NCBI GenBank assembly: GCA_052327205.1
Contig: CM126232.1
Location: forward strand, 35,402,001-35,466,000
Reading direction: 5' to 3'
From: Somniosus microcephalus
Lineage: Eukaryota
Length of the DNA: 64,000 bases
Shown: in pieces, positions 667-48,320 of the stretch
Layout: each line of letters starts with the position of its first letter
Numbering within the stretch: position 1 is the stretch's first letter
Translations under genes and position numbers: made by a program
The notes under the pieces: model-generated
Told to the model about the DNA's origin: nothing
Seen by the model: only the letters and a program-made list of their open reading frames with translations
Database searches by the model: none

Positions 667-853
667 TCAGTCAGTGGGTTCCGTAGCTTGACAAATGTGG
701 GCCTTCACTTCATTTAATATGCTAACTAAATATTCCAGCAACGTCATCTGGCAGATCCACTTGTAATTTTGTGTACACGACACGTTAATCCAGCTTCCAT
801 TGGGTGGTTGGTAACCGCATGCTGATGTCCCAGGATCACGGAAGGCTAGGAAC
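667..853 (-). CDS. Lectin CTLD exon 3 (terminal): [61 protein letters not shown]
   Basis: Acceptor ttttgcttctag, phase 2; C...GSW....C.....WICQ CTLD signature; TGA at 667-669. Confidence 0.9.
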
Positions 854-9800: not shown

Positions 9801-12800
9801 GCACTCCCTCAGTACTGCCCCTCCGACAGTGCAGCGCTCCCTCAGTACTGCCCCTCCGACAGTGCAGCGCTCCCTCAGTACTGCCCCTCCGACAGTGCAG
9901 CGCTCCCTCAGTACTGCCCCTCCGACAGTGCAGCGCTCCCTCAGTACTGCCCCTCCGACAGTGCAGCGCTCCCTCAGTACTGCCCCTCCGACAGTGCAGC
10001 ACTCACTCAGTACTGACCTTTAAGGGTATGCACGGCCCATTCACAATACCATGCCTGTGCGCATTTTCCTATTTCGAAGCCAGTCAGCCGACTGCGAGGG
10101 AGCTGTAGAGCGCAGCACCGCCACACAGCTCAAAGGGAGCATTGGTCACTGTTGTAATGTATGAAATGAGGCAGACAATTTCAGCACAAACAGCAATGAG
10201 ATAACGATCAGATAATCTGTTCCGTTGAGCAAGGGATAAATATTGGCCAAGACACCGGGGAGAACTCTCCTGCTCTTCTTCAAATATGCCATGGGATCTT
10301 TTATGTCCAACTGAGAGAGCAGACGGGGCCTCAGTTTAACGTCTCATCCGAAAGACGGCACCTCCGACAGTGCGGCGCTCCCTCAGTACTGCCCCTCCGA
10401 CAGTGCGGCGCTCCCTCAGTACTGCCCCTCCGACAGTGCTGCGCTCCCTCAGTACTGCCCCTCCGACAGTGCGGCGCTCCCTCAGTACTGCCCCTCCGAC
10501 AGTGCGGCGCTCCCTCAGTACTGCCCCTCCGACAGTGCAGCGCTCCCTCAATACTGCCACTCCGACAGTGCAGCACTCCCTCAGTACTGCACTGGGAGTG
10601 TCAGCCTAGATTTTGTGCTCAAATCTCTGGAGTGGGACTATGAACACACAACCTTCTGACTCAGAGGTGAGGCTGCCACCCACTGATCCACAGCTGAAAT
10701 TTGTAAAGAACGTCATTCGCAAGGAATACAGGATAGAATCCTAGGCTACTCACCACTGAAGTTCAGTTGCTTAACAATATTACTTATTTCTTCCACTTTT
10801 TTACAATTTGCAGAATCTGGAAGGAATAAACAGATTAGAGGATATTATTCTCACACAAACATTCTCTCAATTCCCTCAATCATTCATTAAGTCCCAGCAG
10901 AGCTGAAGCCAATAAGGACCTTAATTAAAAAAACACTGAGTAAGAGAGCCAATAGAGGGTTGGAATCCAAGTCTCGGTTGCCATGTTTACATTCCAGACA
11001 TAGGGTAAAAAGTAAAGAAAGAGCTTGCATTACATACAGCACCTTTCACCACCTCAGGACGTCCCAAAGTGCTTTATAGCCAATGTTATAGCCAATGAAG
11101 TTCTATTGAAGTGTAGTCACTGTCAATGGTCCCTTTAATTTTTCTTGGGGTGTGTGGCCCCTTTAAGGGTCTGCGCAGCCCATTCACAATACCGTACCTG
11201 CGCGCATTTTCCTATTTCGAAGCCAGTGAGCCAACTGCGAGGGAGCTGTAGAGCGCAGCACCGCCAAGCAGCTCAAAGAGAGCATTGGTCACAGTTGAAA
11301 TGTGTGAAATGAGGCAGACAATTTCAGCACAAACAGCAATGAGATAACGATCAGATAATCTGTTCCGTTGATCAAGGGATAAATATTGGCCAAGATTCCA
11401 GGGAGAACTCCCCTGCTCTTCTTCAAATACGCCAGGGGATCTTTTACGTCCAACTGAGAGAGCAGATGGGGCCTCCGTTTAAAGTCTCATCCGAAAGACG
11501 GCACCTCCGACAGTGCAGCACTCCCTCAGTACTGCCCCTCCGACAGTGCGCCACTCCCTCAGTACTGCCCCTGTGACAGTGCGGCACTCCCTCAGTACTG
11601 CCCCTGTGACAGGGCAGCGCTCCCTCAGTACTGCCCATCCGACAGTGCGGCGCTCCCTCAGTACTGCTCCTCCGACAGTGCGGCGCTCCCTCAGTACTGC
11701 CCCTCCGAAAGTGCGGCACTCCCACAGTATTGCCCCTCGGACGGTGCGGCGCTCCCTCAGTACTGCCCCTCCGACAGTGCGGCGCTCCCTCAGTACTGCC
11801 CCTCCGACAGTGCGGCGCTCCCTCAGTACTGCCCCTCCGACAGTGCGGCGCTCCCTCAGTACTGCCCCTCCGACAGTGTGGCGCTCCCTCAGTACTGCCC
11901 CTCCGACAGTGCGGCACTCCTTCAGTGCTACACTGGGAGTGTCAGCCTAGATTTTTGTGGGATTTGAACCACACAATCTGGCTCAGGGGCGAGAGTGCAA
12001 CCCACTGAGCCGGTGGAAGGGAGGGAGTGATAGGTTCGGGAGTGGGAATATCACCACGGGAATGACTTACCGCTTTGTTTCATTGCTGAAGATGCCTCTG
12101 TTGGTGCCGGTGTTTTGGGATTAACTTCTGATACTGTTGAAACAAAAAGGCGATTCCAAATTATTTCCAGAAGGAAAAGCGTAGCAATAATTTTCACAAA
12201 TGAAATAGGTTGACAGGCAGATGAAGGCTATTGATCATCAACAACAACAACAACTTTTATTTATATAGCGCCTTTAATGTAGTAAAACGTCCCAAGGTGC
12301 TTCACAGGAGTATTATAAGACAAAAATTTGACACCGAGCCACATGAGATATTAGGGCAGGTGACCAAAAGCTTGGTCACAGAGGTGGGTTTTAAGGAGCA
12401 TCTTAAAGGAGGAGAGAGAGGTGGAGAGGTTTAGCGAGGGAATTCTGGAGCTTAGGGCCCAGGCAGCTGAAGGCACGGCCACCAATGGTTGAGTGATTAT
12501 AATCAGGGATGCTCAAGAGGGCAGAATTAGAGGAGCGCAGATATCTCGGGGGGTTGTGGGGCTGGAGGAGGTTACAGAGATAGGGAGGGGCGAGGCCATG
12601 GAGGGATTTGAAATGGGCGAACGGGACTTGGTGCGAGTTAGAACACGGGCAGCCGAATAAGGACCTCAATTAAAGAAACGCTGAGTAAGAGAGCCAATAG
12701 AGGGTTGGAATCCAAGTCTAGGTTGCCATGTTTACATTCCAGACATAGGGTAAAAAGTAAAGAAAGAATTTGCATTACATACAGCACCTTTCACCACCTC

Positions 12801-15800
12801 AGGACGTCCCAAAGCGCTTTATAGCCAATGTTATAGCCAATGAAGTTCTATTGAAGTGTAGTCACTGTCAGTTGTCCCTTTAATTTTTCTTGGGCTGCAC
12901 GGCTCCTTTAAGGGTCTGCGTGGCCCATTCACAATACCGTGCCTGCGCGCATTTTCCTATTTCGAAGCCGGTGAGCCGGCAGCGAGGGAGCTGTAGAGCG
13001 CAGCACCACCACGCAGCTCAAAGGGAGCATTGGTCACTGTTGTAATGTATGAAATGAGGCAGACAATTTCAGCACAAACAGCAATGAGGTAACGATCAGA
13101 TAATCTGTTCCGTTGATCAAGGGATCAATATTGGCCAAGATTCCAGGGAGAACTCCCCTGCTCTTCTTCAAATACACCATGGGATCTTTTATATCCAACT
13201 GAGAGAGCAGACGATGCCTCGGTTTAACATCTCATCTGAAAGACAGCCCCTCCAACAGTGCAGCGCTCCCTCAGTGCTGCCCCTCCAACAGTGCGATGTT
13301 CCCTCAGTACTGCCCCTCCGACAGTGCAGCGCTCCCTCAGTACTGCCCCTCCAACAGTGCGACGTTCCCTCAGTACTGCCCCTCCGACAGTGCGGCGCTC
13401 CCTCAGTACTGCCCCTCCGACAGTGCAGCGCTCCCTCAGTACTGCCCCTCCAACAGTGCGACGTTCCCTCAGTACTGCCCCTCCGACAGTGCGGCATTCC
13501 CTCAGTACTGCCCCTGTGACAGTGCGACATTCCCTCAGTACTGCCCCTCCGACAGTGCGGCATTCCCTCAGTACTGCCCCTCCGACAGTGTAGCGTTCCC
13601 TCAGTACTGCCCCTCCGACAGTGCGGCGCTCCCTCAGTACTGCCCCTCCGACAGTGCGGCGCTCCCTCAGTACTGCCCCTCCGACAGTGCAGGGCTCCCT
13701 CAGTACTGCCCCTCTGACAGTGCGGCGCTCCCTTAGTACTGCCCCTCCGACAGTGCGGCGCTCCCTCAGTACTGCCCCTCCGACAGTGCGGCGCTCCCTC
13801 AGTACTGCCCCTCCGACAGTGCGGCGCTCCCTCAGTACTGCCCCTCCGACAGTGCGGCACTCCCTCAGTACCACACTTGAAGTGTCAGCCTAGATTTTTG
13901 TGGGACTTGAACCATACAATCTGACTCGGGGGCGAGAGTGCGACCCACTGAGCCGGTGGAAGGGAGGGAGTGATAGGTTCGGGAGTGGGAATATCACCAC
14001 GGGAATGACTTACCACTTTGTTTGATTGCTGAAGATGCCTCTGTTGGTACCGGTGTGTTGGGATTAACGTCTGATGCTGTTGAAACAAGAAGGCGATTCC
14101 AAATTATTTCCAGAAGGGAAAGCGTGGCTATAAATAACGCAAATGAAATAGGTTGACAGGCAGATGAAGGCCATCTATCATCAACAACAACAACAACTTG
14201 TATTTATATAGCGCCTTTAACGTAGTAAAATGTCACAAGGCGCTGCACAGGTGCATTGTAAGACAAAAATTTGACACCGAGCCACATAGGGATAAATTAG
14301 GGCAGGTGACCAAAAGCTTGGTCAAAGAGGTTGGTTTTAAGGAGCGTCTTAAAGGAGGAAAGAGAGGCAGAGAGGTTTATGGAGGGAATTCCGGAGCTTT
14401 AAGCCTAGGCAACAGAAGGCACGGCCGCCAATGGTGGAGCGATTATAATCAGGGATGCTCAAGTGGGCATAATTAGAGGAGCGCAGATATCTCGGGGGGG
14501 GTTGTGAGGCTGAAGAAGATTACAGAGATAGGGAGGGGCAAGGCCGTGGAGGGATTTAAAAACAAGGATGAGAATTTTGAAATCGTGACGTTGCCGGACC
14601 GGGAGTACAGGGGGTGATGGGATAACGGGACTTGGTGCGAGTTAGGACACGGGCAGCCGAGTTTTGGATGACCTCAAGTATACGGAGGGTAGAATGTAGG
14701 CAGTTAAATTGAATTCCTCAAATAATAAAAAAACATTAAATGTCAAAAATCTAAACATGCTGAGAGATTCACACTTAGAATTCCAGTGGGCTCCAAATTG
14801 TGAGCAGATGCATCACATCAAGTGTGAAGAATCAAAAGTTCCAGGGTTGTTTTGCACAGAAAATAATTCCCAAGTGTTCATCCTCTTTATAAATCACTGC
14901 TGCTTCTAACTGGGCTTTTCCGGGCTGGAATGATGGGCAGACCGGAAGCCTTAGGTTACGATAAGTGTGAGCGTGCTGGTTAGTTCCCTCAGTAACCCCT
15001 AGATGGCACCTTCACTTGTTTTTTTCCTTTTGCTAATTGTTACTAGTTTCTCCTGTGTTTATTACTTAACTGCCTTTCATCAGGTTTATTGGTTTCACCT
15101 GTTTTTGCTTGTATTTAAGTTCTGTGGTTTCTTCCCTCTGTGCTCAGTCTTGACAAGCCGTTTGCCTAGTGGTAGCTTGTCTTGAGCTCCTATGTTTGTA
15201 ACTGTTGACCTGTGTGATTCTAGTAAAGTACTTTTATTTAAGACTGCATACCTGCTTCTCGCCTCATCTGTCTGCACTTGGGTCCAGAACCAGCCTCGCC
15301 CTGACAGCAAGACTGCCCAGCTGGTTGTCCAGCATGTCTTCCGCCTCCATGGCTTGCCCCTGGATGTCGTCTCTGACCGTGGTCCCCAGTTCTCATCCAG
15401 GTTCTGGAAGGCTTTTTGTTCCCTCCTGGGCACTTCCGTCAGTCTCTCCTCTGGGTTCCACCCACAGTCTAACGGCCAGACTGAGAGAACCAACCAAGAT
15501 CTGGAGAGGGTGCTAAGAAGCTTTGTGTCCTCCCAGCCTTCCACCTGAAGCAAGTATCTGGTCTGGGCGGAGTACGTGCACAATACCCTTCAGAGCTCCT
15601 CCACTGGCCTCTCACCTTTCTAATGTCAATATGGCTTCCAACCGCCACTCTTCCCTGAACAGGAGAGGGAGGTAGGAGTCCCGGCTGCCCAGGGGTTCGT
15701 CCAACACTGCCGCCGTACCTGGAGGAGGGTCCGATCCGCCTTGCAGCTCGCTTCTTCTCGGCAGAAAGTGCAGGCTGACCGACACCATCGCCAAGCTCCT

Positions 15801-18800
15801 CGGTTCCGGACCGGACAGAAGGTCTGGCTGTCTACCCGGAATCTTTCGCTCCATGTGGAGCCCCGCAAGTTGGCTCCCGGGTTCATCGGACCTTTTAGGA
15901 TTTTGGAAAAAGTAAACCCTGTGGCCTACCGGCTCCTCCTTCCTCGGTCGATGAAGATACATCCCACGGTTCATGTCTCTCACCTCAAGCCGGTACTTAC
16001 CAGTCCCTTGGTTCCTGCTTCCAGCCCTCCCCCCCCGCCCTGCATGATTGACGGTCAGCATGCCTACACTGTCCGTCGCCTCCTTGATAGTCGCCGGGTT
16101 AGGAGGAGCATTCAATACCTGGTCGACTGGGAGGGTTATGGTCCTGAAGAGCGTTCCTGGGTTCCAGCCCGGGACATTTTGGATCCTGAACTCATCAGGG
16201 ATTTTTGCCATCGCCACCCTGATCATCCAGGAGGAATGTCAGGAGCCGTTCCTAGGGGAGGGGGTCCTGTGAGGGTGCCAGTTAGTTCCCTCAGTAACCC
16301 CTAGATGGCACCTTCGCTTGTTGTTTTCCCTTTGCTAATTGTTACTAGTTTCTCCTGTGTTTATTACTTAACTGCATTTCATCTGGTTTATTGGTTTCAC
16401 CTGTTTTTGCTTGTACTTAAGTTCTGTGGTTTCTACCCTCTGTGCTCAGTCTTGACAAGCCGTTTGCCTAGTGGTAGCTTGTCTTGGGCTCCTATGTTTG
16501 TAACTGTTTACCTGTGTGATTCTACGAAAGTACTTTTATTTAAGACTGCATACCTGCTTCTCGCCTCGTCTGTCTGCACTTGGGTCCAGAGCCAGCCTCG
16601 CCCTGACAGACAAGCCCCTGTCCCGCATTTGTCCAAAACGTCCCACAGAGGCCATTTATCCCCTTGAGTCTGCTCCGCCATTCAATGAGATCAGTGCTTA
16701 TACTCAAACACCTTTCAAGGTGGAGGAGGTGAGGTGATCGTGGAGGGGAGCAGGGACAGAACGTGACCTGAAACCCTGGTGCCCAGAACTGGTCTCCTTC
16801 CTATTATCTGTTGAGACCAACCTGGCCACAAACACAACTTTTCAGTAGCAATATGTCGTAGAATTTACAAAGAAGGTGTTCGGCTCCTGGTTTCCACGTG
16901 ATGAATGCAGCGTCAGAGCCAGCCCGTTGGGAGGGAGGCACCATGAAACGGAGACAGGGACCTCCTTAGAGAGACGGAGAGGGAACAGAGGCTGAGGGAG
17001 AGCAGGTCTGTCCTCACTCCCCGCTTGACCAGAGAATGGCGGAGAGCTTGGGGAGACTTAACCAAAAAAAACCGCAACTTACAGAAATGATTTCAGTAAC
17101 TTACTTGTGTCTTGAATCTTGGTCGGTGCGGTCGGTTCTTTGGTCGGCTCCTGCTTCATTTCTGTGCCTAACGCTGAGACTGAAAGACAGATTGAAATGA
17201 CCGCTGTCATCAAAAAAACAGCAGCTGAACGTCAAAAACAGAAGAATTTTGGGGGAGAAGTTCGGTGGGTTAGCGCCTCCTGTTAAGGCCCCGGGAGGGG
17301 GCGATAACGAGGCGCTAATGACTTGCCGCCCGGGTACGGCGAGATGAGCGACTCCCACTAACTTGGCCAACAGGTTTGCGCCAGTGCTAAAACCTTGCGC
17401 CTCCATCTCCTGCGCCCGGAGACGGTGACATCATGGGTGTGCGCATCGCCCCGGCAGCGCCCCGGACCCGAACTTCGGCTCCGTCCCATTGCAGCACCAC
17501 CGGGCGACGACAGCGACAGCTGCAGGAGGCGTTGTTCGGGAGGCCGGGCGCTTCGGGGGGTCGGGGGGGAGGGCGGGAGTTCAAGGGGAGGTTGCTGAGG
17601 TAAGGAGCAAAATTTCTAAAAAAAATTTTGAGCAATTTCTTCCAATTCTCCTGGGCCGCGATCGATCGGCCCGGCGCTCTGCTGGAGAGCGCGGGGCTGG
17701 TCAGGCCGAAATGCGGCCGCCGTCAGGGAACCAGCTCACTGGTCCCAGTGCAGAGCCTCCAGCGACGGCCCCTTCGCTTTAAGGGAGGGAAGGAGCCTCG
17801 GATCACGGCAGCGCTGCACCACTCCCGCCCCGGCCAGCGTCCTGTAGCGAAACTCCAATGTCGTGAAAGCTGGAAATCATTAGTGCCTGGCGCTATGTTT
17901 CCCAGCTTTCAAAAGTTACCACTCCCCCCCAAAACGGGGCGATAATGAATTTCTCCCCCTTTAAGTCAACCATTTTCAGGAAGAGTGACGAAAAAAATGT
18001 TTAGGATTTATCAGCTTTTATTTCGGATGCAATCATCACTCACACCTCACTCCTTATTTTATTGATCAACCTTGACAATTCTCCAAAGGCAGTCAAAGGA
18101 ATCGCCGCGGTTTATAACATGTTTACACCATCTCTCATTTCAAAAAAAAAAACCCCACTTGGAACCAGTATTGAAGGAAATAAACTTTCACGTCAGACCC
18201 CAGTCAAGGAAGCCTCAGAATATTTCTTCTGAGGGAAGATGAAACTTTGTGCAGGTTGCATTTCAGCAGCTTCTTTGGTATTTGTCATTTTTACTTATTC
18301 ATTCGTGAGATGTGTGCATCGCTGGCAAGGCCGGCATTTATTGCCCGTCCCTAGTTGCCCTCGAGAAGGTGGTGGTGAGCCGCCTTCTTGAACCGCTGCA
18401 GTCCGTGTGGTGAAGGTGCTCCCACGGTGCTGTTAGGGAGGGAGTTCCAGGATTTTGACCCAGCGACGATGAAGGATCGGCCGATATACTTCCAAGTTAG
18501 GATGGTGTGTGAGTTGGAGGGGAACTTGGAGGTGGTGGTGTTCCCATGCGCCTGCTGCCCTTGTCCTTCTAGGCGGAAGAGGTCGCGGGTTTGGGAGGTG
18601 CTGCCGAAGAAGAAAAACTTCTTTGGAGACAAGCAGCAAATAAACAAATCTGTGCAGCTGGAACTCTCAGAAACCAACAGCTCAATTTTAACGTTTTTCT
18701 ACCTCAAAGGTTGTACACAACAGACAATGGGAGCTAGCAAGATCTGATTGGTGCCAGTCCCACTGCCCAACATACCTCATCTGACTAGAGATATCAGTCC

Positions 18801-21800
18801 CACCCTCCGGCGATCTGACTGGTTAATCCGGACAACCTCCAACACCAGTGGGAGATGGTGGATTTTCTTGTCCAACTCTGACACCTAGGTTGAAACACTG
18901 CCTGCTTAAAAAACTAATAGTTGCATGGTTTATAACTGAAGTGGAACCCTTCAGTAAAATTACATCCTATTCTTGCACCTTGCCATCTATAATTCCAAAT
19001 GGTCAAATTAAGCGAATTAATCTTGAAGTGTATAATGAATATTGAAAGAGATTGTGAGTCACCTTTATCATTGCTACTGTTCACTTTCGCATCTCTGTCT
19101 TTCTGTCTGAGATTTAATGCTGAAAGGTGACATGAGTTTACACATTGTTATCCTCTGTGAACATACTACTGTACATGGATTTGCATCTTAGTGCCAGGGC
19201 TGAGGGAGTGCTGCACTGCCAGAGGTGCCGTGTTCCAGGTGAGACGTTAAACCGAGGCCCCGTCTGCCCTCTCAGGTAGGGGTAAAAGGACCCGCGGCCA
19301 CTATTCGAAAAAGAGCAGGGGAGCCCTCCCCGGGTGTACTGGCCAAACATTTATCCTTAAACCAATACCACTAAAAAACAAACATTTATCTCATCGCTGT
19401 TTCTGGGCTCCTGCTGTGCACCAATTGGTTGCCGCGTTTCCTCCATTCGGTGTCGGAGCCAGTCCATTGAGAGGGAGGCACCATGAAACGGAGACAGAGA
19501 CCTCCTTAGAGAGACGGAGAGGGAACAGAGGCTGAGGGAGAGAAGGTCTGTCCTCCCTCCCCGCTTGGCCAGAGCTTGGGGAGACTTAACCAAAAACACA
19601 ACTTACAGAAATGATTTCAATCACTTACTGTTAACTTGATTGGTGGACAGTTGGGACAGCTCCTGTTTCAATGCTGCTCTGAACGCTGAGACTGAAAGAC
19701 AGATCGAAATGACCTCCGTCATCAAATAAACAGCAGCTGAACGTCAAAAACAAAAGACTTTGAGGCAACCATTTTCTTACACTGTGACCAGCCGTATTTT
19801 TAAGGTGTTTCAGCCTTTATTTCACTGTATGTTGTGGAGAGATAGATTACTCTGTACTTCTACCGATGGAATTAAATGTCTTGTGGGACTTTGGAAAGTC
19901 TCCATGGAATGTGGAAAGCTCTTTTTATCGTAATTTAATAAATTCTGAATGAATCCACTTTGTATTGCGAAAGAAAAGCTATGATTTCTAGACAACTATG
20001 TTAGGTAAACCATGGTGATTGGCTCAAATAATACATGAACTAGATTGATTCCTGGGATGAGAGGGTTGTCCTATGAGGAGAGATTGTGTAGAATGGGCCG
20101 ATACTCTCTGGAGTTTAGAAGAATGAGAGGTGATCTCATTGAAACATACAAGATTCTGAGGGGGATTGACAGGGTAGATGCTGAGAGGTTGTTTCCCCCT
20201 GGCTGGAGAGTCTAGAACTAGGGGTCACAGTCTCAGGATAAGGGGTCGGCCATTTAAGACTGAGATGAGGAGGAATTTCATCACTCAGAGGGTTGTGAAT
20301 CTTTGGAATTCTCTGCCCCAGAGGGCTGTGGATGTTCAGTCGTTGAGTATATTCAAGGCTGAGATCAATAGATTTTTGGACTCTAGGGGAATCAAGGGAT
20401 ATGGAGATTGGGCGGGAAAGTGGAGTTGAGGTCGATGATCAGCCATGATCTTATTAAATGGCGGAGCAGGCTCGAGCGACCGTATGCCCTACTCCTGCAC
20501 TTATTTCTTATGTTCTTAACTAAAAAATGACCAATCAAAACCCATCCCCATTCACTAAATAATTGAGATAAAGCTACAGTCAATAATGATCAAAAGCCAA
20601 CTGAAGGGGTTTGATAGGGTAGACGTAGAGAAGATGTTTCTACTTGTGGGGGAGACCAGAACTAGGGGCCATAAATATAAGATAGTCACTGAGAACACGG
20701 ACAGCAGCGGTTCAAGGAGGCGGCTCACCACCACCTTCTCAAGGGCAAGTAGGGATGGGCAATAAATGATGGCCTTGCCAGCGACGCCCACATCCCAGGA
20801 ATGAATTTAAAAAATGTTTCCACTTGTGGGAGGGACCAGAGCTAGAGGCCATCAATATAAGACAGTCACTAATAAATCCAATAGGGAATTCAGGAGAAAC
20901 TTCTTTACCCAGAGAGTGGTGAGAATGTGGAACTCGCTGCCACAGGGAGTGGTCGAGGTGAATAGCACAGATGGAATTTAAGGCGAAGCTCAATTAAACG
21001 CATGAGGGCGAAAGGAATAGAAGGTTATGTTGCTAGGGTGGGAGGGAGGCACCATGAAACGGAAACAGAGACCTCCTTAGAGAGACGGAGAGGGAACAGA
21101 GGCTGAGGGAGAGAAGGTCTGTCCTCACACCCCGCTTGGCCAGAGAATGGTGGAGAGCTTGGGAAGACTTAACCAAAAAAACACAACTTACAGAAATGAT
21201 TTCAATCACTTACTGTTAACTTGGTTGGTGGACAGTTTGGACAGCTCCTGTTTCATTTCTGCTCTGAACGCTGAGACTGAAAGACAGATCGAAATGACAA
21301 CCGTCATCAAATAAACAGCAGCTGAATGTCAAAAACAAAAGACTTTGAGGCAACCATTTTCTTAAACTGTGACCAGCCGTATTTTTAAGGTGTTTCAGCC
21401 TTTATTTCACTGTATGTTGTGGAGAGATAGATTACACTGTACTTCTACCGATGGAATTAAATGTCTTGTGGGACTTTGGAAAGTCTCCATGGAACGTGAA
21501 AAGCTCTTCGTATTGTAACTTAATAAATTCTGAATGAATCCACTTTGTATTGCGAAAGAAAAGCTATGATTTCTAGACAACTATGTTAGGTAAACCATGG
21601 TGATTGGCTCAAATAATACATGAGCTAGATTGATTCCTGGGATGAGAGGGTTGTCCTATGAGGAGAGATTGAGTAGATTGGGCCGATACTCTCTGGAGTT
21701 TAGAAGAATGAGAGGTGATCTCATTGAAACATACAAGATTCTGAGGGGGATTGACAGGGTAGATGCTGAGAGATTGTTTCCCCTGGCTGGAGAGTCTAGA

Positions 21801-24800
21801 ACTAGGGGGCATAGTCTCAGGATAAGGGGTCGGCCATTTAAGACTGAGATGAGGAGGAATTTCTTCACTCAGAGGGTGGTGAATCTTTGGAATTCTCTGC
21901 CCCAGAGGGCTGTGAATGCTCAGTCGTTGAGTATATTCAAGGCTGAGATCGATAGATTTTTGGACTCTAGGGGAATCAAGGGATATGGAGATCGGGCGGG
22001 AAAGTGGAGTTGAGGTCGATGATCAGCCATGATCTTATTGAATGGCGGAGCAGGCTTGAGGGGCCGAATGGCCGACTCCTGCTCTTATTTCATATGTTCT
22101 TATGTTCTTAACTAAAAGATGACCAATCAAAAACCATCCCCATTCACTAAATAATTGAGATAAAGCTACAGTCAATAATGATCAATGACCAGCTGAAGGG
22201 GTTTGATAGGGTAGACGTAGAGAAGATGTTTCTACTTGTGGGGGAGACCAGAACTAGGGGCCATCAATATAAGATAGTCACTCAGAACACTGACTGCAGC
22301 GGTTCAAGGAGGCGGCTCACCACCACCTTCTCAAGGGCAAGTAGGGATGGGCAATAAATGATGGCCTTGCCAGCGACGCCCACATCCGAGTAATGAATTT
22401 AAAAAATGTTTCCACTTGTGGGAGGGACCAGAACTGGAGGCCATCAATATAAGACAGTCACTAATAAATCCAATAGGATATTCAGGAGAGACTTCTTTAC
22501 CCAGAGAGTGGTGAGAATGTGGAACTCGCTGCCACAGGGAGTGGTCGAGGTGAATAGCACAGATGGTATTTAAGGCGAAGCTCAATTAAACACATGAGGG
22601 CGAAAGGAATAGAAGGTTATGTTGCTAGGGTGGGAGGGAGGCACCATGAAACGGAAACAGAGACCTCCTTAGAGAGACGGAGAGGGAACAGAGGCTGAGG
22701 GAGAGAAGGTCTGTCCTCACTCCCCACTTGGCCAGAGAATGGTGGAGAGCTAGGGAAGACTTAACCAAAAAAACACAACTTACAGAAATGATTTCAATCA
22801 CTTACTGTTAACTTGATTGGTGGACAGTTTGGACAGCTCCTGTTTCATTTCTGCTCTGAACGCTGAGACTGAAAGACAGATCGAAATGACAACCGTCATC
22901 AAATAAACAGCAGCTGAATGTCAAAAACAAAAGACTTTGAGGCAACCATTTTCTTAAACTGTGACCAGCCGTATTTTTAAGGCGTTTCAGCCTTTATTTC
23001 ACTGTATGTTGTAGAGAGATAGATTACTCTGTACTTCTACCGATGGAATTAAATGTCTTGTGGGACTTTGGAAAGTCTCCATGGAATGTGGAAAGCTCTT
23101 CGTATTGTAACTTAATAAATTCTGAATGAATCCACTTTGTATTGCTAAAGAAAAGCTATGATTTCTAGACAACTATGTCAGGTAAACCATGATGATTGGC
23201 TCAAATAATACATGAACTAGATTGATTCCTGGGATGAGAGGGTTGTCCCATGAAGAGAGATGGAGTAGATTGGGCCGATACTCTCTGGAGTTTAGAAGAA
23301 TGAGGTGATCTCATTGAAACATACAAGATTCTGGGGGGATTGACAGGGTAAATGCTGAGAGATTGTTTCCCCCTGGCTGGAGAGTCCAGAACTAGGGGGT
23401 GTTGTGTATGTACCTTTAAGAGAATAACTGGTCTCAGACTGCAGTACCGGCAGTGACCACTCCTGTATAAAAGGCGCTAGAGAGCCTCTGTTGGTTCGTT
23501 TCGTTTATGCCTTTCACCAGTAAAGACTTGTTTGTTTCTCTCCTGCTAGTCCGTGTCTCAATCATTCACGGACTTAACACTGGCGACGAGTTAGAAACGA
23601 ACTTACCTGCAACTCAGCAGCAGCTCCGACGACGTGTTGAAGGTCGGAGCCAGAAGAAAGAAAAAAAAAGAAAAAAGAAAAAAAAATAGGCCATTGAAAC
23701 TCGAGAAACGGGCGTCGACCGTCAATCATCGATTTCAAAACTTGCAGGAGAGACTGTCCAGAGCCAGGCTGGGTTCCTCGGTCCGTGGTTTCCCAGCTAA
23801 TCGGGCTGGTGGCAGGTAGTGCTCTGATCCTTCCTGGGCTGCAACGGGGCCGGGCAGCGAGTCGGGAAGCAAGGAGAGAGAGAGAGGGTGGAGCATACAG
23901 GGCGCGGGCGGTGTTTCGAAGCTGGGCAGCGTTCGGACCTCAGAAGAGGGAGGGAAGTGTCCCAGAGGGTCCGCTCCACAACGGGAAGATAATAAAAGAA
24001 AACGAATTAATATTTAACGCGCAGGAAACCGTGGAAAGCAGCGCTAACAACAACGGGGAAGAAGGAAAAGCGCGGGAGGCGCCATTTTGTTAAATCGGAG
24101 AAGAAGGCAAAGCGCGGGAGGCGCCATTTTAGATTTGCAAGATGCCGAAGACTGGCTGTATCACTGCTTTTGATAATACATTAGAGGACTGGACCACGTA
24201 TGTGGAAAGAGTCGAGGTATATTTCGAGGCAAATGAAATAGCGGAGGGGAAAAAGGCATCAATATTGCTAAAAGTAATGGGCGCTAGAACGTACGGCCTA
24301 TTGCGGGATCTGATTACTCCAGCCAAACCGAAGGCAAAGAGTTTTAACGAAATTGTTGCTGTTCTACAGGAGCACTTAAACCCTGCACCGCTGTTGATAG
24401 CAGAAAGATTTAAATTCCACAGGAGAACTCAGCACAAAGATGAGAGCAATGCTGAGTATCTTACGGAACTACGCAAGCTATCAAAGCACTGCCAGTTCGG
24501 AGCAGGACTGGCAGATACCCTACGGGACAAATTTGTCTGTGGACTCCTGAGTGAAGGAACACAGAAGAAGTTACTCGCAGAAAAAGAGCTGACGCTAGAT
24601 AAGGCTTTCAGCGTGGCAGTATCGTATGAAGCAGCAGCCAGGGGAGCTGCAGAAATTCAACAAAAACCACAGGAATACGGCACCCACGAAATGACACGGG
24701 GATTTGCAAAATGTTATAGCTGCAGCAGAACTAACCATGACCAGAAGGACTGCTGGTCCAAAGACAAAATATGCAGACAATGCGGGAAGATTGGACACAT

Positions 24801-27800
24801 TGCACGAGTTTGTAGGTCTGGGAAGAAGACTAGCGACAACAAAAAGGCTACTAAGGAACCGTACAAGAAAGTACAAAAGATGAGCGATAGTGAATCCGAG
24901 AACAGGAGATTAAGCTGTCTCAAACTTCACAATGTAATCGCAAAAGAGGATCACCGAACCATTTGGGTCACCCTCACGATAGCAGGGTCCCAAGTTAAAA
25001 TGGAATTGGATACAGGATCAGCGCTAACCGTCATGAATCGACGAGACTATGAGCGGCTATTTTCACACATACCCTTGAGAGAGACATCCATCGTCTTGAC
25101 GACGTATACGGGGCAAAAAGTATACCCCAGAGGAAAAATAAGGGTGCCTGTCGAATACAATGGCAAGAAAATACGGAAATTGTATCTCTACATACTGCCA
25201 AATGGTGGACCACCGTTATTGGGACGGGAATGGATCAGGAAGATAAACTTAGATTGGCATTCCATTCATGCAATGACGGTGGACGGTAAAAAAGATTTAG
25301 ACGTCACTCCTGGACGATTGTCAACAATCTTAGCTAACGCCAAAGAGGTATTTCAACAAGAACTGGGCACGCTTAAAGGCGTAACCGCCTCGTTAAAAAT
25401 AGAAGAGAATGCAGTTCCCAAGTTTTTCAAAGCGAGACCGGTACCATATGCAATTCGTCCAGCCATCGAGGCAGAGCTGGAGAATCTGGAGAAGGCGGGC
25501 GTGTTGTCTAAGGTCGACTGGAGTGAGTGGGCGACACCCATCGTTCCTGTCATGAAGAAAACGTTAAGCAATAAGTCCGGAGAGCCAAGGAAGATTCGCA
25601 TCTGTGGGGATTTCAAGGTGACGGTGAACCCTGTCCTTCACACAGTACAATATCCTCTTCCAAGGATAGAAGACATCTTCGTCTCACTGTCTGGAGGGAA
25701 GCGTTTTACAAAAATCGACCTAGCACAAGCATATTTGCAGATGGAGGTTGAAGAGTCCTCTAGGAAGTATCTCACGATAAACACTCACAAAGGTCTTTAC
25801 CAGTATCATCGATTGGTATTCGGAGTAGCATCGGCTCCGGCGATATGGCAAAGAGCGATGGAACAAGTCCTGCAAGGGATTCCGGGGACTCAGTGTTACT
25901 TGGACGACATCCTTGTAACAGGTGAAGATGACAGTGAACACCTTAACAACCTAGAACAGGTGCTCACTAGACTATGGGAACATGGGCTGCGAGCCAACCG
26001 CCCCAAGTGCGAATTTTTTAAGAAACAGATATCGTATTGTGGCCACGTGATTGATGAAGAGGGGTTACATGAGTCCCCTGACAAAATTGAAGCAGTTGTT
26101 AAGGCCCCAGCGCCTGAAAATGTGTCGCAACTGAGGTCATTCCTCGGGTTGGTGAATTACTATCATAAGTTTTTGCCGAATTTGTCGACAATTCTGCATC
26201 CACTGAACGCCCTGCTACGAACGGGGGTAGCATGGAAATGGAGCGATGATTGTAAACGTGCTTTTCAGAAGAGTAAGGACTTAATCACTTCGAAGGAAGT
26301 ATTGGCTCACTACAACCCAGCACTGCCAATCAGGCTGGCGTGTGATGCGTCTCCCTACGGCATTGGGGCGGTACTGTCACATAAATTCCTTGATGGTTTG
26401 GAGAGGCCGATAGCTTTTGCGTCACGCTCGTTAACTTCTGCCGAGCGTAACTATGCCCAGATTGACAGAGAGGCCCTCAGCCTAGTGTGGGGGGTGAAGA
26501 AGTTCAATCACTATCTGCACGGTCAAAAATTTACTCTACTAACCGATCATCAACCTCTTGTCTCCATTTTCAACCCTCAGAAGGGCGTACCGATAATGAC
26601 AGCGCAACGGCTGCAGAGGTGGTCCCTTTTCCCAGGGGCACACCAATATGACATCGAGTACAAAGGAACTAAACCGCATGGGAATGCTGATGGATTGTCA
26701 CGCCTACCGTTGCCGACGGTGGAAGAAGAAGACCTTGCAGTGGATCCAATGGAGTTATTCCACTCGACCATAGTCGAATGTCTCCCTGTGACGAATGCAA
26801 ACATAGAAAAGGAAACACGGAATGACCCAACACTATCACGGGTCTATGATTTAACGGTGAAGGGATGGCCAGCACATGGCGAACCACTGCTGCCAGCATT
26901 CTCGCCGAGAAGAGAACAGCTGTCAGTGTGCAGAGGAACCTTGATGTGTGGATCCAGAGTAGTAATTCCACCTAAGTTGACGGATAGAGTGCTCAATGAG
27001 CTTCATGAGGGTCATCTGGGTGGGGTAAAAATGAAGAACTTAGCCAGAGCGTTTGTGTGGTGGCCGGGAATCGATAGAGAAATCAAAGAGATGACCAAGA
27101 GCTGTGCTGGATGCCAGAAGGTCCAAAACGCCCCACCACAAGCTCCTCTGCATCCATGGGAGTGGCCCTCATCTCCATGGCAAAGGGTGCACATTGATTT
27201 TGCTGGTCCCTTCATGGACTTGATGTTTTTAATTGCGGTGGATGCACATTCAAAGTGGCCAGAGGTAATAAAAATGTCCTCAACCACCACGGAAAAAACT
27301 ATCGCAGTTTTACGAACCATATTCGCCAGGAATGGGCTGCCTGAACAGATTTGCTCTGACAATGGACCACAGTTTGTGTCTGAAGAGTTCCGGAGGTTCT
27401 TAAAGAACAATGGTGTTAAGCATTACACATCTGCCCCATATCATCCAGCCACTAATGGATTGGCCGAGAGGTTTGTCCAAACATTCAAGAAGGCTATCAA
27501 GGCAATGTGTAATGAAGATATACCCCTACAACACAAGGTGGACAACTTCTTGTTTGCCTACCAGAATGCGACACATGCGGTTACCAACCAAACTCCAGCC
27601 ATGATGTTCTTCAATCGAAGACTACGATGCCGCTTGGATTTGGCTAAGCCAAACGTCCGAAGAGATGTGGAGAACAGGCAGTTTCAGAATATGAATGAAA
27701 GGCCGACCAGGAGTTTTAAGATAGGTCAACCAGTTTTGGCCCGGGACTACCGCACTGAGAAATGGCAGCCAGGAACGATTTGTACACGACAAGGACCTCT

Positions 27801-30800
27801 CATGTATACCGTGGACGTTGGGGAGAGCATTGTAAGACGCCATGCTGACCAGATTCTAGAGTCACTGGAAAACGTCAACTCCACACCACGATCTGATACA
27901 CCTGGTAATGAAATCGACGTTCCAATTGCAGCTACCGCAGAACCGGTAATATTGGAAGCAGATGAAACAAACAACGACATTGATTCTGACTCAACATTGC
28001 CAGAAGAACCTGATACTCCAAAGAGGCGTTATCCAGACAGAATCAGGAAGCCTCCTCAAAGACTGAGCTTATAATTGCTTAAACTTAACCAATGTATCTA
28101 GCAACAGTAATTGTGATTGTAATTCGCTATCATTAGTTGTTAAATGAATGTTATGTACTGTTTATCTAAAAGGGGAGGAATTGTTGTGTATGTACCTTTA
28201 AGAGAATAACTGGTCTCAGACTGCAGTACTGGCAGTGACCACCCCTGTATAAAAGGCGCTAGAGAGCCTCTGTTGGTTAGTTTCGTTTATGCCTTTCACC
28301 AGTAAAGACTTGTTTGTTTCTCTCCTGCTAGTCCGTGTCTCAATCATTCACGGACTTAACAGGGGGCATAGTCTCAGGATAAGGGGTCGGCCATTTAAGA
28401 CTGAGATGAGGAGGAATTTCTTCACTCAGAGGGTTGTGAATCTTTGGAATTCTCTACCCTAGAGGGCTGTGAATGCTCAGTCTTTGAGTATATTCAAGGC
28501 TGAGATCGATAGATTGTTGGACTCTAGGGGAATCAAGGGATATGGAGATCGGGCAGGAAAGTGGAGATGAGGTCGAAGATCAGCCATGATCTTACTGAAT
28601 GGCAAAGCAGGCTCGAGGGGCCGTATGCCCTACTCCTGCACTTATTTCTTATGTTCTTAACTAAAAGATGACCAATCAAAACCCATCCCCATTCACTAAA
28701 TAACTGAGATAAAGCTACAGTCAACAATGATCAATGACCAGCTGAAGGGGTTTGATAGGGTAGACGTAGAGAAGATGTTTCCACTTGTGGGGGAGACCAG
28801 AACTAGGGGCCATCAATATAAGATAGTCACTCAGAACACTGACTGCAGCGGTTCAAGAAGGCGGCTCACCACCACCTTCTCAAGGGCAAGTAGGGATGGG
28901 CAATAAATGATGGCCTTGCCAGCGACGCCCACATCCGAGTAATGAATTTGAAAAATGTTTCCACTTGTGGAAGAGACCAGAACTAGGGGCCATCAATATA
29001 AGACAGTCACTAATAAATCCAATAGGGAATTCAGGAGAAACTTCTTTACCCAGAGAGTGGTGAGAATGTGGAACTCGCTGCCACAGGGAGTGGTCGAGGT
29101 GAATAGCACAGATGGTATTTAAGGCGAAGCTCAATTAAACACATGAAGGCGAAAGGAATAGAAGGTTATGTTGCTAGGGTGGGAGGGAGGCACCATGAAA
29201 CGGAGACAGAGACCTCCTTAGAGAGACGGAGAGGGAACAGAGGCTGAGGGAGAGAAGGTCTGTCCTCACTCCCCACTTGGCCAGAGAATGGTGGAGAGCT
29301 TGGGAAGACTTAACCAAAAAAACACAACTTACAGAAATGATTTCAATCACTTACTGTTAACTTGGTTGGTGGACAGTTTGGACAGCTCCTGTTTCATTTC
29401 TGCTCTGAACGCTGAGACTGAAAGACAGATCGAAATGACAACCGTCATCAAATAAACAGCAGCTGAACGTCAAAAACAAAAGACTTTGAGGCAACCATTT
29501 TCTTAAACTGTGACCAGCCGTATTTTTAAGGTGTTTCAGCCTTTATTTCACTGTATGTTGTAGAGAGATAGATTACACTGTACTTCTACCGATGGAATTA
29601 AATGTCTTGTGGGACTTTGGAAAGTCTCCATGGAATGTGGAAAGCTCTTCGTATTGTAACTTAATAAATTCTGAATGAATCCATTTTGTATTGCGAAAGA
29701 AAAGCTATGATTTCTAGACAACTATGTTAGGTAAACCATGGTGATTGGCTCAAATAATACATGAACTAGATTGATTCCTGGGATGAGAGGGTTGTCCTAT
29801 GAGGAGAGATTGAGTAGAATGGGCCGATACTCTCTGGAGTTTAGGAGAATGAGAGGTGATCTCATTGAAACATACAAGATTCTGAGGGGGATTGACAGGG
29901 TAGATGCTGAGAGGTTGTTTCCCCTGGCTGGAGTGTCTAGAACTAGGGGGCATAGTCTCAGGATAAGGGGTCGGCCATTTAACACGGAGATGAGGAGGAA
30001 TTTCTTCACTCAGAGGGTGGTGAATCTTTGGAATTCTCTGCCCCAGAGGGCTGTGGGGGCTCAGTCGTTGAGTATATTCAAGGCCGAGATCAATAGATTT
30101 TTGGACTCTAGCAGATTCAAGGGATATGGAGATCGGGCAGGAAAGTGGAGTTGTGGTCACCTACTCCTGCTCTTATTTCTTATGTTCTTATGTTCTTAAT
30201 AAAAGATGACCAATCAAAAACCATCCCCGTCCACTAAATAATTGAGATAAAGCTACAGTCAACAATGATCAATGACCAACTGAAGGGGTTTGATAGGGTA
30301 GACGTAGAGAAGATGTTTCCACTTGTGGGGGAGACCAGAACTAGAGGGCCATCAATATAAGATAGTCACTGAGAACACTGACTGCAGCGGTTCAAGAAGG
30401 CGGCTCACCACCACCTTCTCAGGGGCAAGTAGGGATGGGCAATAAATGCTGGCCTTGCCAGCGACGCCCACATCCCAGGAATGAATTTTTAAAATGTTTC
30501 CACTTGTGGGAGGGACCAGAACTAGAGGCCATCAATATAAGATACTCACTAATAAATCCAATTGGGAATTCAGGAGAAACTTCTTCACCCAGAGAGTGGT
30601 GAGAATGTGGAACTCGCTGCCACAGGGAGTGGTCAAGGTGAATAGCATAGATGGTATTTAAGGGGAAGATCGATAGACACATGAGGGGGAAAGGAAAAGA
30701 AGGTTATGTTGATAGGGTGAGATGAAGTAGAGTGGGAGGAGGCTCGTGTGGAGCATAAACACCGGCACGGACTAGCTGGGCTGAATAGCCTTTTTCTGTG

Positions 30801-33800
30801 CTGTACATTTGAGGAAAATTGATACAAAAACTATGTCATTTGGGTGGGATTCCTTCATTCTTCCAATCACCACCCGCCCCCCCACCCCTGCCCACAATCA
30901 CTCTCTGAAGACACTGATTACGCTGGGATAGGGTTCTTAGGGACCCAGATCAACCTTCAGTTCCTTGCACCAGTGCCTAAACATCACGTGTGAGCCAAGA
31001 CACTGAATGGCAGCAAACTGTTTGACCATGGAGGGAATCACTCCATTATCACTTAGAAACATAGAAACATAGAAAAAATAGGAGCAGGAGTCGGCCATTC
31101 GGCCCTTCGAGCCTGCTCCGCCATTCAATATGATCATGGCTGATCCTCTATCTCAATACCATATTCCCGCTCTCTCCCCAGACCCCTTGATGCCTTTTGT
31201 GTCTAGAAATCTATCTATCTCCTTCTTAAATATATTCAGTGACTTGGCCTCCACAGCCTTCTGTGGTAGAGAATTCCACAGGTTCGCCACCCTCTGAGTG
31301 AAGAGATTTCTCCTCATCTCAGTCCTAAATGTCCTACCCCGTATCCTGAGACTGTGACCCCTCGTTCTAGACCCCCCCAGCCAGGGGAAACATCCTCCCT
31401 GCATCCAGTCTGTCTAGCCCTGTCAGAATTTTATACGTTTCAATGAGATCCCCTTGCATTCTTCTAAACTCTAGTGAATACAGGCCTAGTCGACCCAATC
31501 TCTCCTCATATGACAGTCCTGCCACCCCAGGAATCAGTCTGGTGAACCTTCGCTGCACTCCCTCTATGGCAAGTATATCTTTTCTTAGGTAAGGAGACCA
31601 AAACTGCACACAGTACTCCAGGTGTGGTCTCACCAAGGCCCTGTATAACTGTAGTAAGACATCCTTGCTCCTGTACTCAAACCCTCTTGCAATGAAGGCC
31701 AACATACCATTTGCCTTCCTAACTGCTTGCTGCACCTGCATGTTTGCTTTCAGTGACTGGTGTACAAGGACGCCCAGGTCCCTTTGTACATCAACATTTT
31801 CCAATCTATCACCATTTAAATAATACTCTACCTTTCTGTTTTGCCACCGAAGTGGATAACCTCACATTTATCCACGTTATACTGCATCTGCCATGTATTT
31901 GCCCACTCACTCAACTTGTCTAAATTGCCTTGAAGCCTCTTTGCATCCTCCTCACAACTCACAATCCCACCTAGTTTTGTGTTGTCAGCAAACTTGGAAA
32001 TATTACATTTGGTTCCCTCATCCAAATCATTGATATATATTGTGAATAGCTGGGGCCCAAGCACTGATCCCTGCGGTACCCCACTAGTCACCACCTGCCA
32101 ACCCGAAAAAGACCTATTTATTCCTACTCTCTGTTTCCTGTCTGTTAATCAATTTTCAAATCCATGCCAGTATATTACCCCCAATCTCATTTGCTTTAAT
32201 TTTGCACACTAACTTCTTATGTGGGACTTTATCAAAGGCCTTCTGAAAATCCAAATACACCACATCCACTGGTTCTCCCTTATCTATTCTACCAGTTACA
32301 TCCTCAAAAAACTCCAGTAGGTTTGTCAAGCACGATTTCCCTTTCATAAATCCATGTTGACTTTGTCTAATCCTGTTGATATTTTCTAAGTGTCCTGTTA
32401 TCACATCCTTTATAATAGACTCTAGCATTTTCCCTACTACTGATGTTAGGCTAACCGGTCTGTAGTTCCCCGTTTTCTCTCTCCCTCCTTTTTTACTTGA
32501 CATCCACGTTCTCCATCAGGTGTCCCTGGATTGTAGGACCTCTGACTAATTCTACCCCACAAGAGTTGCGAATGGCACGAACCAACCAGCAAGAACCTAT
32601 TGTAGAACCCGCCCAATTTTCATTCCGCTGTTCTGGTGTGCCAGTCAGAGGCAGTTCCTGTCTAGTTAGTATGAAGAATGGGATACTTGCCTTCATTAGC
32701 CAAGGCATAGAATATAAGAGCAGGGAGGTTATGATGGAGCTGTACAAAACGCTAGTTAGGCCACAGCTGGAATACTGTGTGCAGTTCTGGTCACTACACT
32801 ATAGGAAGGATGTGATTGCATTGGAGAGGGTGCAGAGGAGATTCACCAGGATGTTACCTGGGCTGGAGCGTTTCAGCTATGAAGAGAGACTGGACAGGTT
32901 AGGGTTGTTTTCCTTAGAGCAGAGAAGGCTGAGGGGGGACCTGACTGAAGTGTACAAAATTATGAGGGGCATAGATAGGGTAGATAGAAAGGAACTTTAC
33001 CCCTTAGTAGAGGGGTCAATAACCAGGGGGCATAGTTTCAAGGTAAGGGCAGGAGGTTTAGAGGGGATTTGAGGAAAAGCTTTTTCACCCAGAGGGTGGT
33101 TGGAATCCGGAACTCACTGCCTGAAAGGGTGGTAGAGGCAGGAACCCTCACAACATTCAAGAAGCATTTAGGTGAGCACTTGAAACGCCATAGCATACAA
33201 GGCTACGGACCAAGTGCTGGAAAATGGGATTAGGAGAGACAGGGCTTGATGGCCGGCGCGGACACGATGGGCCCAAGGGCCTCCTTCTGTGCTGTATAAC
33301 TCTATGACTCTAAGTACTTACCATTTGAGAGGACAGTCATGAACAGAACCAGCATCACGAGGAAAGTGACTCCTAGAATCAGAAAGAAGACACACGCTTT
33401 TCCATACAAAATGGACCATCTCCCACATGTAAGCTCTCCTCTGCAACCTAAAAGAAAGAAAAGTCAGATGAACGGTTTATCTGTAGCTCCAGAAAGATTA
33501 GGGGGTAACTCCACAATCCACACTCCTGACAGGGAGCCCCAATCCCTGGGAGCGCGGATTGGAGAGTAGGGCTTCTAGGCCTCGCTCTGACCAGTGCTCC
33601 CAGTCAGTTCAGCTCTCCGCTGGGGAGAGGGTGTAGGAGCCCAGAATTACCCCTGCTGGGATAGAGTTTCCGCTTCGGGCGCAGTCGGGAAATTGCACCA
33701 AAATTGCCCTTGAAATTGCGCTAGTTAGGTCCATTGAAATTCATTTGCATAATCACAAACATAAAATCTTCCTTGAACCAGCGCAATCAGTTCAGTTCAG

Positions 33801-47574: not shown

Positions 47575-48320
47575 AAACCCCACCTCACTCCTCCTCCCCA
47601 CCGCCCCGCCCCTCCTCCCCACCCTCCCCCTCCACCCCACCCCCACCCCCACCTCCTCCCCATCCCCACCTCCCCCACCGCCCCACTCCTCCTTCTCTCC
47701 CCCTCCACTCCCACAGCCCTCCCTCCCCCACCGCCCCACCCCCACCTCCCCCCCCACCCCTCACCACCCCACCCCCCTCCTCTCCTACTCCCATTTCACC
47801 CCCACCCCACCTCTCCACTCCCCCGCCCCCCTACTTTCCCCCTACACCCCATCCCACCCCTCCATTCCCCCCCAACCCACCCCTCCACTCCTCCTCCCTT
47901 CTCCTCTCCCCCCTACACCCCATCCCACCCCTCCACTCCCCCCCACCTGCCCCAACCCTCCATCCCCCCTCCTCTCCCCCCGCACCCCTCCACTCCCCCA
48001 CCCCTCCATTCCCCCTCCCCCCCACCCCACTCCTCCTCCCCACCGCCCCACCCCCACCTCCCCCCCACCCCTCACCACCCCAACCCCCTCCTCTCCTACT
48101 CCCCTCTCACCCCCGCCCCATCCCTCCATTCCCCCTCCCCCCCACCCCACCCCTCCACTACCTTCCACCCACCCCACCCCTCCACTCCCCCCCACCCGCC
48201 CCACCCCTCCATTTCCCCTCCCTCCCGCCCCACCCCTCCACTACCTCCCACCCACCCCACCCCTCCACTCCCCCCCCATCCACCCCACCCCTCCACTCCC
48301 CCCACCACCCAACCCTCCTC
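47575..48320. repeat. C-rich low-complexity tract of about 750 bp (G-rich on the minus strand)
   Basis: Imperfect ccacccctcca/ccccac repeats with almost no G on the plus strand. Confidence 0.9.

Follow-up and report, generated by a model that had tools for sequence, protein, structure and literature searches.

The predicted receptor gene

The window analysed here is the whole stretch of 64,000 nucleotides, and the gene model built from its sequence is a single open frame of 401 residues across 13 GT-AG exons, all on the minus strand. The predicted product is a type II transmembrane C-type lectin-like receptor, comprising a cytoplasmic tail, one transmembrane segment, a stalk and a lectin-like domain at the C-terminus. 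The first coding exon (43337..43463, ending in phase 1) encodes a 42-residue tail with two Y-x-N motifs, at Y7 and Y23, while the 126-nt transmembrane exon (33322..33447, phase 1-1) holds the only hydrophobic segment of the protein (hydropathy peak 2.98; windows starting at residues 53-72). The lectin-like domain is split over three exons, a trait of type II C-type lectin-like receptors, with phases 1-0 (4510..4661), 0-2 (1970..2067) and 2-stop (667..853); the Lectin_C profile matched two single window exons, at E 0.05 (the first lectin-like exon) and 0.024. Ca2+-dependent sugar-binding group II lectins (CD209, CLEC10A, ASGR) carry EPN or QPD plus WND motifs. EPN, QPD and WND are all absent from the lectin-like domain here and in its horn-shark counterpart, which places the predicted receptor outside that group; a CTLD gene 1 Mb away has both EPN and WND. 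A simple splice-site scan, with thresholds chosen after the exons had been seen, returned 19 rows at 11 donor sites, 9 of these being the transmembrane exon and the 8 stalk exons, and 0 rows on the opposite strand. A multi-copy gene family was ruled out, because the tail and transmembrane exons each gave a single match.

A horn-shark relative

As queries in word-indexed protein searches, neither the first nor the last lectin exon gave a match, nor did the frame of the repeat exon, and only a full HMMER scan found the horn shark (Heterodontus francisci) proteins XP_067877312.1 (X1) and XP_067877313.1 (X2), named 'C-type lectin domain family 10 member A-like' (Lectin_C E 4.4e-8); both are computed RefSeq models, known here as protein sequence. 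X1 is colinear with the predicted receptor, having a tail with two Y-x-N motifs, a transmembrane segment, the same family of stalk modules, a P-type segment and a lectin-like domain, and judged by its sequence it is probably the orthologue. Nine of the 11 window exon peptides tested match X1 at p <= 0.004, and the stalk exon R0 (below) does so at p 0.012. Identity amounts to 18/36 aligned residues in the tail, where both Y-x-N motifs are retained, 19/40 in the transmembrane exon, and 25/46, 16/22 and 32/53 in the three lectin-like exons, respectively.

A stalk of eight exons

Four of the eight stalk exons are the 63-nt repeat exons R1 (29355..29417), R2 (22806..22868; one synonymous difference from R1), R3 (21214..21276; identical to R1) and R4 (19629..19691; three amino-acid differences from R1). 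Each has an AG acceptor, a GTAAGT donor and phase 1-1, such that any subset keeps the reading frame in the stalk of the predicted receptor; the four symmetric exons with intact splice sites claimed in an earlier note on this DNA were thus borne out, including the peptides given there. Two whole-assembly DNA searches gave 5 matches each, every one within the window. An alternative AG 6 nt downstream of the R-exon acceptor would yield a 57-nt in-frame exon, and the start of the horn-shark module aligns with the 63-nt form. A 108-nt form via an upstream acceptor was ruled out, since the horn-shark modules lack the hydrophobic stretch that it brings in.

The remaining stalk exons lie downstream in the gene. 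R0 (75 nt, 17105..17179) is Pro/Thr-rich and an older R paralogue, identical to R1-R4 at 47-50 of 63 exon positions with flanks 89-95% identical; it is a fifth, diverged copy outside the range of 19470..30715 covered by the earlier note. P2 (14014..14076) and P1 (12071..12133), each 63 nt and Pro/Ser/Thr-rich, are identical to each other at 57/63 positions, and P2 matches the horn shark at 10/20 residues. They are carried by a second tandem duplication (10907..14600, ends approximate, no strand assigned) of two units of about 1.74-1.94 kb that are about 91% identical. The membrane-distal neck exon N (63 nt, 10754..10816) has one cysteine, and its local alignment to the horn shark was not significant (p 0.13).

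The 21 residues of the R repeat had been read as three heptads, a reading for which our tests gave a weak signal: positions a and d together gave p 0.47, with one heptad position of I/M/L reaching p 0.08, and single repeats scored p 0.64 (R1) and p 0.76 (R4). The same a+d test gave p <= 0.018 in 5/6 paralogue exons and p <= 0.031 in 2/3 horn-shark modules. N-x-S sequons fall at residues 84, 105, 126, 147 and 168 of the predicted receptor. Modelled by AlphaFold from its single sequence, the horn-shark protein (mean pLDDT 49) came out mostly helical over residues 54-231; we give this model no evidential weight.

The array, its junctions and an LTR element

The four R exons sit in an array of exon+intron units (19468..30722, no strand assigned), each with about 570 bp of non-repeat DNA and about 1 kb made up of fragments of LINEs and further interspersed repeats. 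Unit lengths are 1571, 1592, 1582 (excluding an LTR element) and about 1540 bp, the unit anchors are spaced at 1571, 1592 and 6549 bp, and all 6 pairwise identities fall within 95.05-96.96%, with private indels. The near-identical units of the earlier note therefore stand, but not as four contiguous stretches of 1.59 kb, since a 4,962-bp LTR retrotransposon (23400..28361, plus strand, antisense to the gene) interrupts one of them. This element is of the Ty3/Gypsy type, with 180-bp LTRs differing at 3/180 sites, a target-site repeat (GGGGG at both flanks), and a protease-RT-RNase H-integrase order; it has one open frame (24133-28074).

At every unit junction a LINE 3' region abuts non-repeat intron over a short GGGAGG overlap. 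Accordingly the LINE part, which we take to be CR1, makes up a single side of the junction, and the placement of the junctions in a CR1 3' end holds for that side alone. At about 30722 the right-hand duplication breakpoint truncates the end of the LINE 3' fragment at 30495..30773 (plus strand). Recombination between two flanking LINE copies was ruled out as the first event, given that the left breakpoint lies in non-repeat intron common to R0.

That the array is an assembly artefact, with haplotypes or reads stacked in tandem, seems to us highly improbable. The four-unit array does rest on the assembly sequence; against the artefact, its four versions are 3-5% apart with private indels, share one novel junction, and include a single copy with an LTR insertion flanked by a target-site repeat, so that two alleles cannot be their source, and the window has no N. 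Matches of four sequencing runs to 13900-33800 were swamped by interspersed repeats; among the 15 matches listed of about 5,000 there was no exon-exon joint and no piece spanning the array.

Exchange between units and the age of the array

The units are mosaics, and hence have exchanged sequence. Twenty-one two-versus-two sites distribute 10/6/5 over the three possible trees, as compared with 3.7-5.7 expected from homoplasy, and the best tree is contradicted at 11/21 of these informative sites; among 400 simulations per setting, 0-1.75% reached that number. Polarity is seen in the outermost unit, with private changes in 1/556 inner vs. 26/901 outer columns (p 6e-5), a contrast that coincides with the split between non-repeat and LINE DNA; polarity in the other outer unit was not significant (p 0.55). 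This mosaicism fits gene conversion as well as crossing-over, and the LINE parts could have been converted by dispersed copies.

If unequal crossing-over still gains and loses units, individuals would differ in receptor height. We consider such live copy-number polymorphism rather unlikely, even though the units are mosaic and the non-repeat parts of three of them are only 1.4-2.1% apart. The length alleles of CLEC4M are old and stable in configuration (PMC3261175), and age alone therefore does not exclude polymorphism. The best unit pair, however, reaches 96.96% and none is near-identical over its full length, which points to no recent gain on the examined haplotype, and the unit with the LTR element has seen no copying since the divergence of its LTRs at 3/180 sites. 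The count of four applies to one haplotype, and others may differ in length. Of the proposal that unequal crossing-over makes a variable stalk, in-frame exons and past exchange among units were upheld, while the 3-5% divergence, private indels and LTR insertion in one unit only argue against a fast VNTR.

A further reading, which we regard as quite improbable, is that the additional copies ride along almost neutrally in an intron rich in repeats, with most transcripts using one or none and stalk length independent of unit number. In the most distant copy the exon differs at 4/63 positions and the intron at about 3-4%, so that purifying selection on the copies is not apparent; the donors score 5/7 on a simple splice score, and the heptad signal is weak. 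All four copies nevertheless retain an open frame and the splice sites at either end; in the horn-shark models one protein holds three to four modules of the R family; and the P1/P2 pair is another instance of exon duplication with retention in the same stalk.

Proposed history of the stalk

We favor, with some confidence, the reading that an in-frame stalk exon+intron was duplicated in tandem to give the four units, which likely lengthen the stalk, and that the array is old and largely stable as opposed to a fast length polymorphism. A 75-nt helical neck exon would have been duplicated, with the new copy losing 12 nt; a segment of ~1.58 kb would then have been duplicated at a microhomology of intron DNA with a LINE 3' end; the copies would have multiplied and mixed by unequal crossing-over or gene conversion; and the parent exon R0 would have turned Pro/Thr-rich. 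All four R exons, if spliced in together, would add 84 residues with an N-x-S sequon at each junction. The result may be a helical stalk, segmented and glycosylated, keeping a lectin-like domain that does not bind sugar at a distance from the membrane, with the Y-x-N tail possibly signalling via a Grb2-type adaptor and single-exon skipping fine-tuning receptor height.

From the end of the transmembrane exon to the first domain Cys, the stalk measures 178 residues in the window gene, 184 in X1 and 159 in X2, and its composition is unlike between the two species. The horn-shark modules have 25 residues, whereas the window gene has four copies of a shortened 21-residue module and two P exons; the block duplicated in the horn shark is a different one, of 25+20 residues (45 in all; copies 40/45 identical), and the horn-shark protein's 20-residue spacer and diverged 25-residue module were looked for in the window and not found. 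X1 and X2 differ by exactly one 25-residue module, which is compatible with exon skipping. The height of a receptor bears on how far it reaches for ligand and on its signalling where cells touch. We speculate, as an unlikely extension, that shark lineages keep the stalk near 180 residues via birth and death of whole exons, with independent duplications of different modules in two sharks, and that length alleles and skipping still tune the height of this non-sugar-binding immune receptor in living populations. One gene here displays several stages of stalk building (a Pro/Thr-rich old exon, two copies at 91% identity, four at 95-97%, and an LTR insertion that can be dated), and a second shark lineage attains a similar length from other modules, making this a clean test case for stalk-length selection in cartilaginous fish.

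Comparison with named systems

Stalk growth by duplication of symmetric exons is a known mechanism, of which this receptor is a further case. In glycophorin C (exon duplications) and LPA (the kringle IV-2 repeat), the number of exon+intron units is altered by unequal crossing-over; these proteins are unrelated to the window gene and have demonstrated human alleles, and the 'whole-exon scale' is therefore not new. Our literature search found no glycophorin C exon-duplication case. The stalk of CD23 has 21-residue repeats, each with a small exon of its own (human three, mouse four), making it a closer precedent for whole-exon stalk repeats than CLEC4M; a repeat-per-exon statement for CD23 was not found in the literature searched. 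CD23 (FCER2) is a lectin-like receptor of type II whose stalk is built on heptads (PMC6791321, PMC2212946). The predicted receptor resembles it in type and in its repeated stalk; CD23 has a regular a/d heptad and trimerises, whereas the R repeat does not score as such a heptad.

The neck VNTR of CLEC4M (L-SIGN/DC-SIGNR) has 4-9 repeats of 69 bp, or 23 residues (PMC3261175), all within exon 4 (PMC11945572). Set side by side by description, both necks have repeated modules between membrane and lectin domain, and to that extent the analogy drawn earlier holds; it fails in that CLEC4M has its repeats inside one exon, with demonstrated polymorphism, whereas every R repeat is its own exon with its intron. 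CLEC17A (prolectin) is a type II lectin receptor whose Tyr motifs recruit Grb2, the SH2 domain of which binds YXNX (PMC2709368). The window gene shares this layout and the tail Tyr motifs, but the tail of prolectin is long and its ligands are mannose/fucose, as compared with the 42-residue first exon and a domain lacking sugar-site motifs here. PDB matches were a mixture of NKG2D, CLEC4F, CLEC4M and CD23, with no single mammalian gene singled out, and an ESM Atlas search led to generic Lectin_C clusters. TRAPP and NDUF_B7 matches, whose human counterparts are presumably at 19p13, lie on the same contig as the receptor gene, ~22 Mb off.

Results

The duplication of stalk exons in this lectin-like receptor gene is real and gene-shaping, and of an already known kind. 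Exons R1 (29417-29355), R2 (22868-22806), R3 (21276-21214) and R4 (19691-19629), all on the minus strand, are 63 nt long, flanked by an AG acceptor and a GTAAGT donor and starting and ending in phase 1, confirming the four near-identical units, each with one symmetric exon and intact splice sites, of the earlier note. R1 and R3 are identical in sequence; R2 carries one synonymous change and R4 three amino-acid changes. As to the regular ~1.59-kb array claimed there, two anchor spacings agree (1571 and 1592 bp) but the third, of 6549 bp, holds a 4,962-bp LTR element (23400-28361) that fills the long gap between unit anchors, with 180-bp LTRs differing from each other at 3 sites, GGGGG at both flanks, and a frame whose matches to protease, RT, RNase H and integrase families follow one another in Gypsy order. 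Leaving this element out, identity over the six unit pairs is 95.05-96.96%. The R exon region has 5 matches in the whole assembly, every one inside the window, the fifth being R0 (17179-17105, minus strand), a 75-nt paralogue of R1-R4. Another LTR-like insertion, smaller than the first, was judged by eye between R0 and the stalk exon P2 at 15000-16640; its ends repeat directly and it contains an integrase-like fragment.

A single open frame of 401 aa, predicted from thirteen GT-AG exons between 43463 and 667, runs through all R exons, bearing out in-frame growth of the stalk by exon units. The predicted protein comprises, in order, a tail of 42 aa bearing two Y-x-N motifs, a single transmembrane (TM) segment, a stalk on eight exons of phase 1-1 (R1-R4, R0, the Pro/Ser/Thr-rich P2 and P1 of 63 nt each, and a 63-nt neck exon) and a lectin-like domain on three exons. 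P1 and P2 are carried by a second tandem pair, ~91% identical; the tail and TM exons are each single copy, and the second-best match to the first lectin exon is 44% identical. A simple splice scan, with thresholds chosen after the exons had been seen, returned 19 rows, which fall on 11 donor sites; 9 of these sites belong to the TM exon and the 8 stalk exons. The opposite strand had 0 rows. The sugar-site motifs EPN, QPD and WND are absent from the lectin-like domain in the window; a lectin gene 1 Mb away carries EPN and WND. The horn-shark protein shares a conserved hydrophobic, helix-like tail that follows the domain (667-750, minus).

When the first lectin exon was used for a HMMER scan, 104 matches came up, mostly with several lectin domains (5 of the 104 were looked up), and the best single-domain match (54%) was XP_067877313.1, the horn-shark 'CLEC10A-like' isoform model X2, whose cluster mate is XP_067877312.1 (X1). 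When 11 window exon peptides were compared with X1, 9 matched at p <= 0.004 and R0 at p 0.012, with no significant match for the neck exon peptide (p 0.13); these sequence matches support the exon model independently and assign the window to a cartilaginous fish, probably a shark. In the horn-shark stalk, modules of 25 aa stand at 86, 156 and 201 and a diverged one at 131, a 20-aa spacer occurs twice, and a 45-aa block has been duplicated in its own right (40/45 identical). Up to the first domain cysteine, the stalk measures 178 aa here (predicted), 184 aa in X1 and 159 aa in X2, and these comparisons support a stalk make-up that differs between species. Since X2 is X1 minus exactly 25 residues, the length a 75-nt exon would encode, exon skipping in the horn shark is suggested by these computed RefSeq models, which were compared as protein sequences.

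Discussion

Over 1,457 gap-free columns of the units, 21 two-versus-two sites are spread over all three possible trees (10, 6 and 5). Of these, 11 disagree with the best tree, where homoplasy would be expected to give 3.7-5.7, and a count of 11 came up in 0%, 0.5% and 1.75% of the 400 runs made under each of three simulation settings. Exchange of sequence between the units is therefore probable. The sites support past exchange but do not tell crossing-over, the unequal form of which the earlier note proposed, from conversion. Private changes in one outer unit fall at 1/556 inner vs. 26/901 outer columns (p 6e-5), a contrast that is lacking in the second outer unit (p 0.55). Two things speak against rapid turnover: no unit pair exceeds 97% identity, and the unit with the LTR element has not been copied.

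At its right end, near 30722, the array interrupts a LINE fragment (30495-30773) that resembles a nearby RT-bearing LINE and is presumably CR1, so the placing of unit junctions in a CR1 3' end stands for this side but not for the left end, which is non-repeat intron common to the R0 region. This argues against a crossover between two LINE copies as the first duplication. Because the intron and the LINE join over a short GGGAGG overlap, the first duplication looks microhomology-mediated.

R0 differs from R1 at 13/63 exon and 16/230 flank positions (p 0.003, gapped alignment); over the ungapped first 39 nt only, the exon excess has p 0.056, with 5/6 changed codons non-synonymous. R0 (17105-17179, minus) also has three prolines where the same-position horn-shark module is helix-like, and, with divergence faster than in the intron flanks, a helix-to-mucin conversion is possible.

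As to the "three heptads" per exon, the repeat has I/M/L at one heptad position (p 0.08), but a and d together are unremarkable (p 0.47). An N-x-S sequon is formed at every R junction (residues 84, 105, 126, 147 and 168). At five other lectin loci on the same contig, scanning placed 2-3 different exons, 72-81 nt in length and of phase 1-1, ahead of each lectin exon, and the stretches read had no tandem copies that were near-identical. Clear heptads are present in 5 of the 6 such exons that were tested, and one of these exons resembles R1 (p 0.0013) and R4 (p 0.0003) among 36 comparisons. We postulate that the repeat likely descended from a coiled-coil neck exon and would now form a segmented, glycosylated helix. 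At 6.8-11.0 Mb of the contig (G000:C31; stretches L008-L015 and L024-L035) lies a cluster of C-type lectin genes that are nearly identical to one another and have two small coiled-coil neck exons apiece.

The CD23 stalk is laid out with one repeat per exon, a statement not found in the literature searched. In published work, the CLEC4M neck has 69-bp, 23-aa repeats in 4-9 copies (PMC3261175), CD23 trimerises through a heptad stalk (PMC6791321, PMC2212946), prolectin recruits Grb2 via YXNX (PMC2709368), and fish receptors are placed unstably between groups II and V (PMC514892). A limited literature search named no paper on this shark gene among the matches listed. TRAPP and NDUF_B7, whose human location is 19p13, have matches on the same contig. 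They give a hint that the contig is the matching chromosome, but they lie ~22 Mb from the window.

A 33-bp tandem repeat forms five arrays inside an interspersed element (1381-1842, 9756-10015, 10361-10590, 11504-11926 and 13246-13871), two of the arrays being carried within the P1/P2 units. Upstream of the first coding exon lie a minisatellite with a 29-bp unit and a long low-complexity tract rich in C (49037-49369 and 47565-48320), and upstream of the gene (57839-58099, minus) an 87-aa charged, coiled-coil-like open frame with weak, below-cut-off Pfam matches. An 18-kb array of a ~28-bp satellite sits between two C-type lectin genes (G000:C31:36410388-36428501, L018-L020). At the TM exon region (33288-33726), a sequencing-run contig differs at 8/439 positions, compared with 0-4 in other unique stretches, which hints at local polymorphism.
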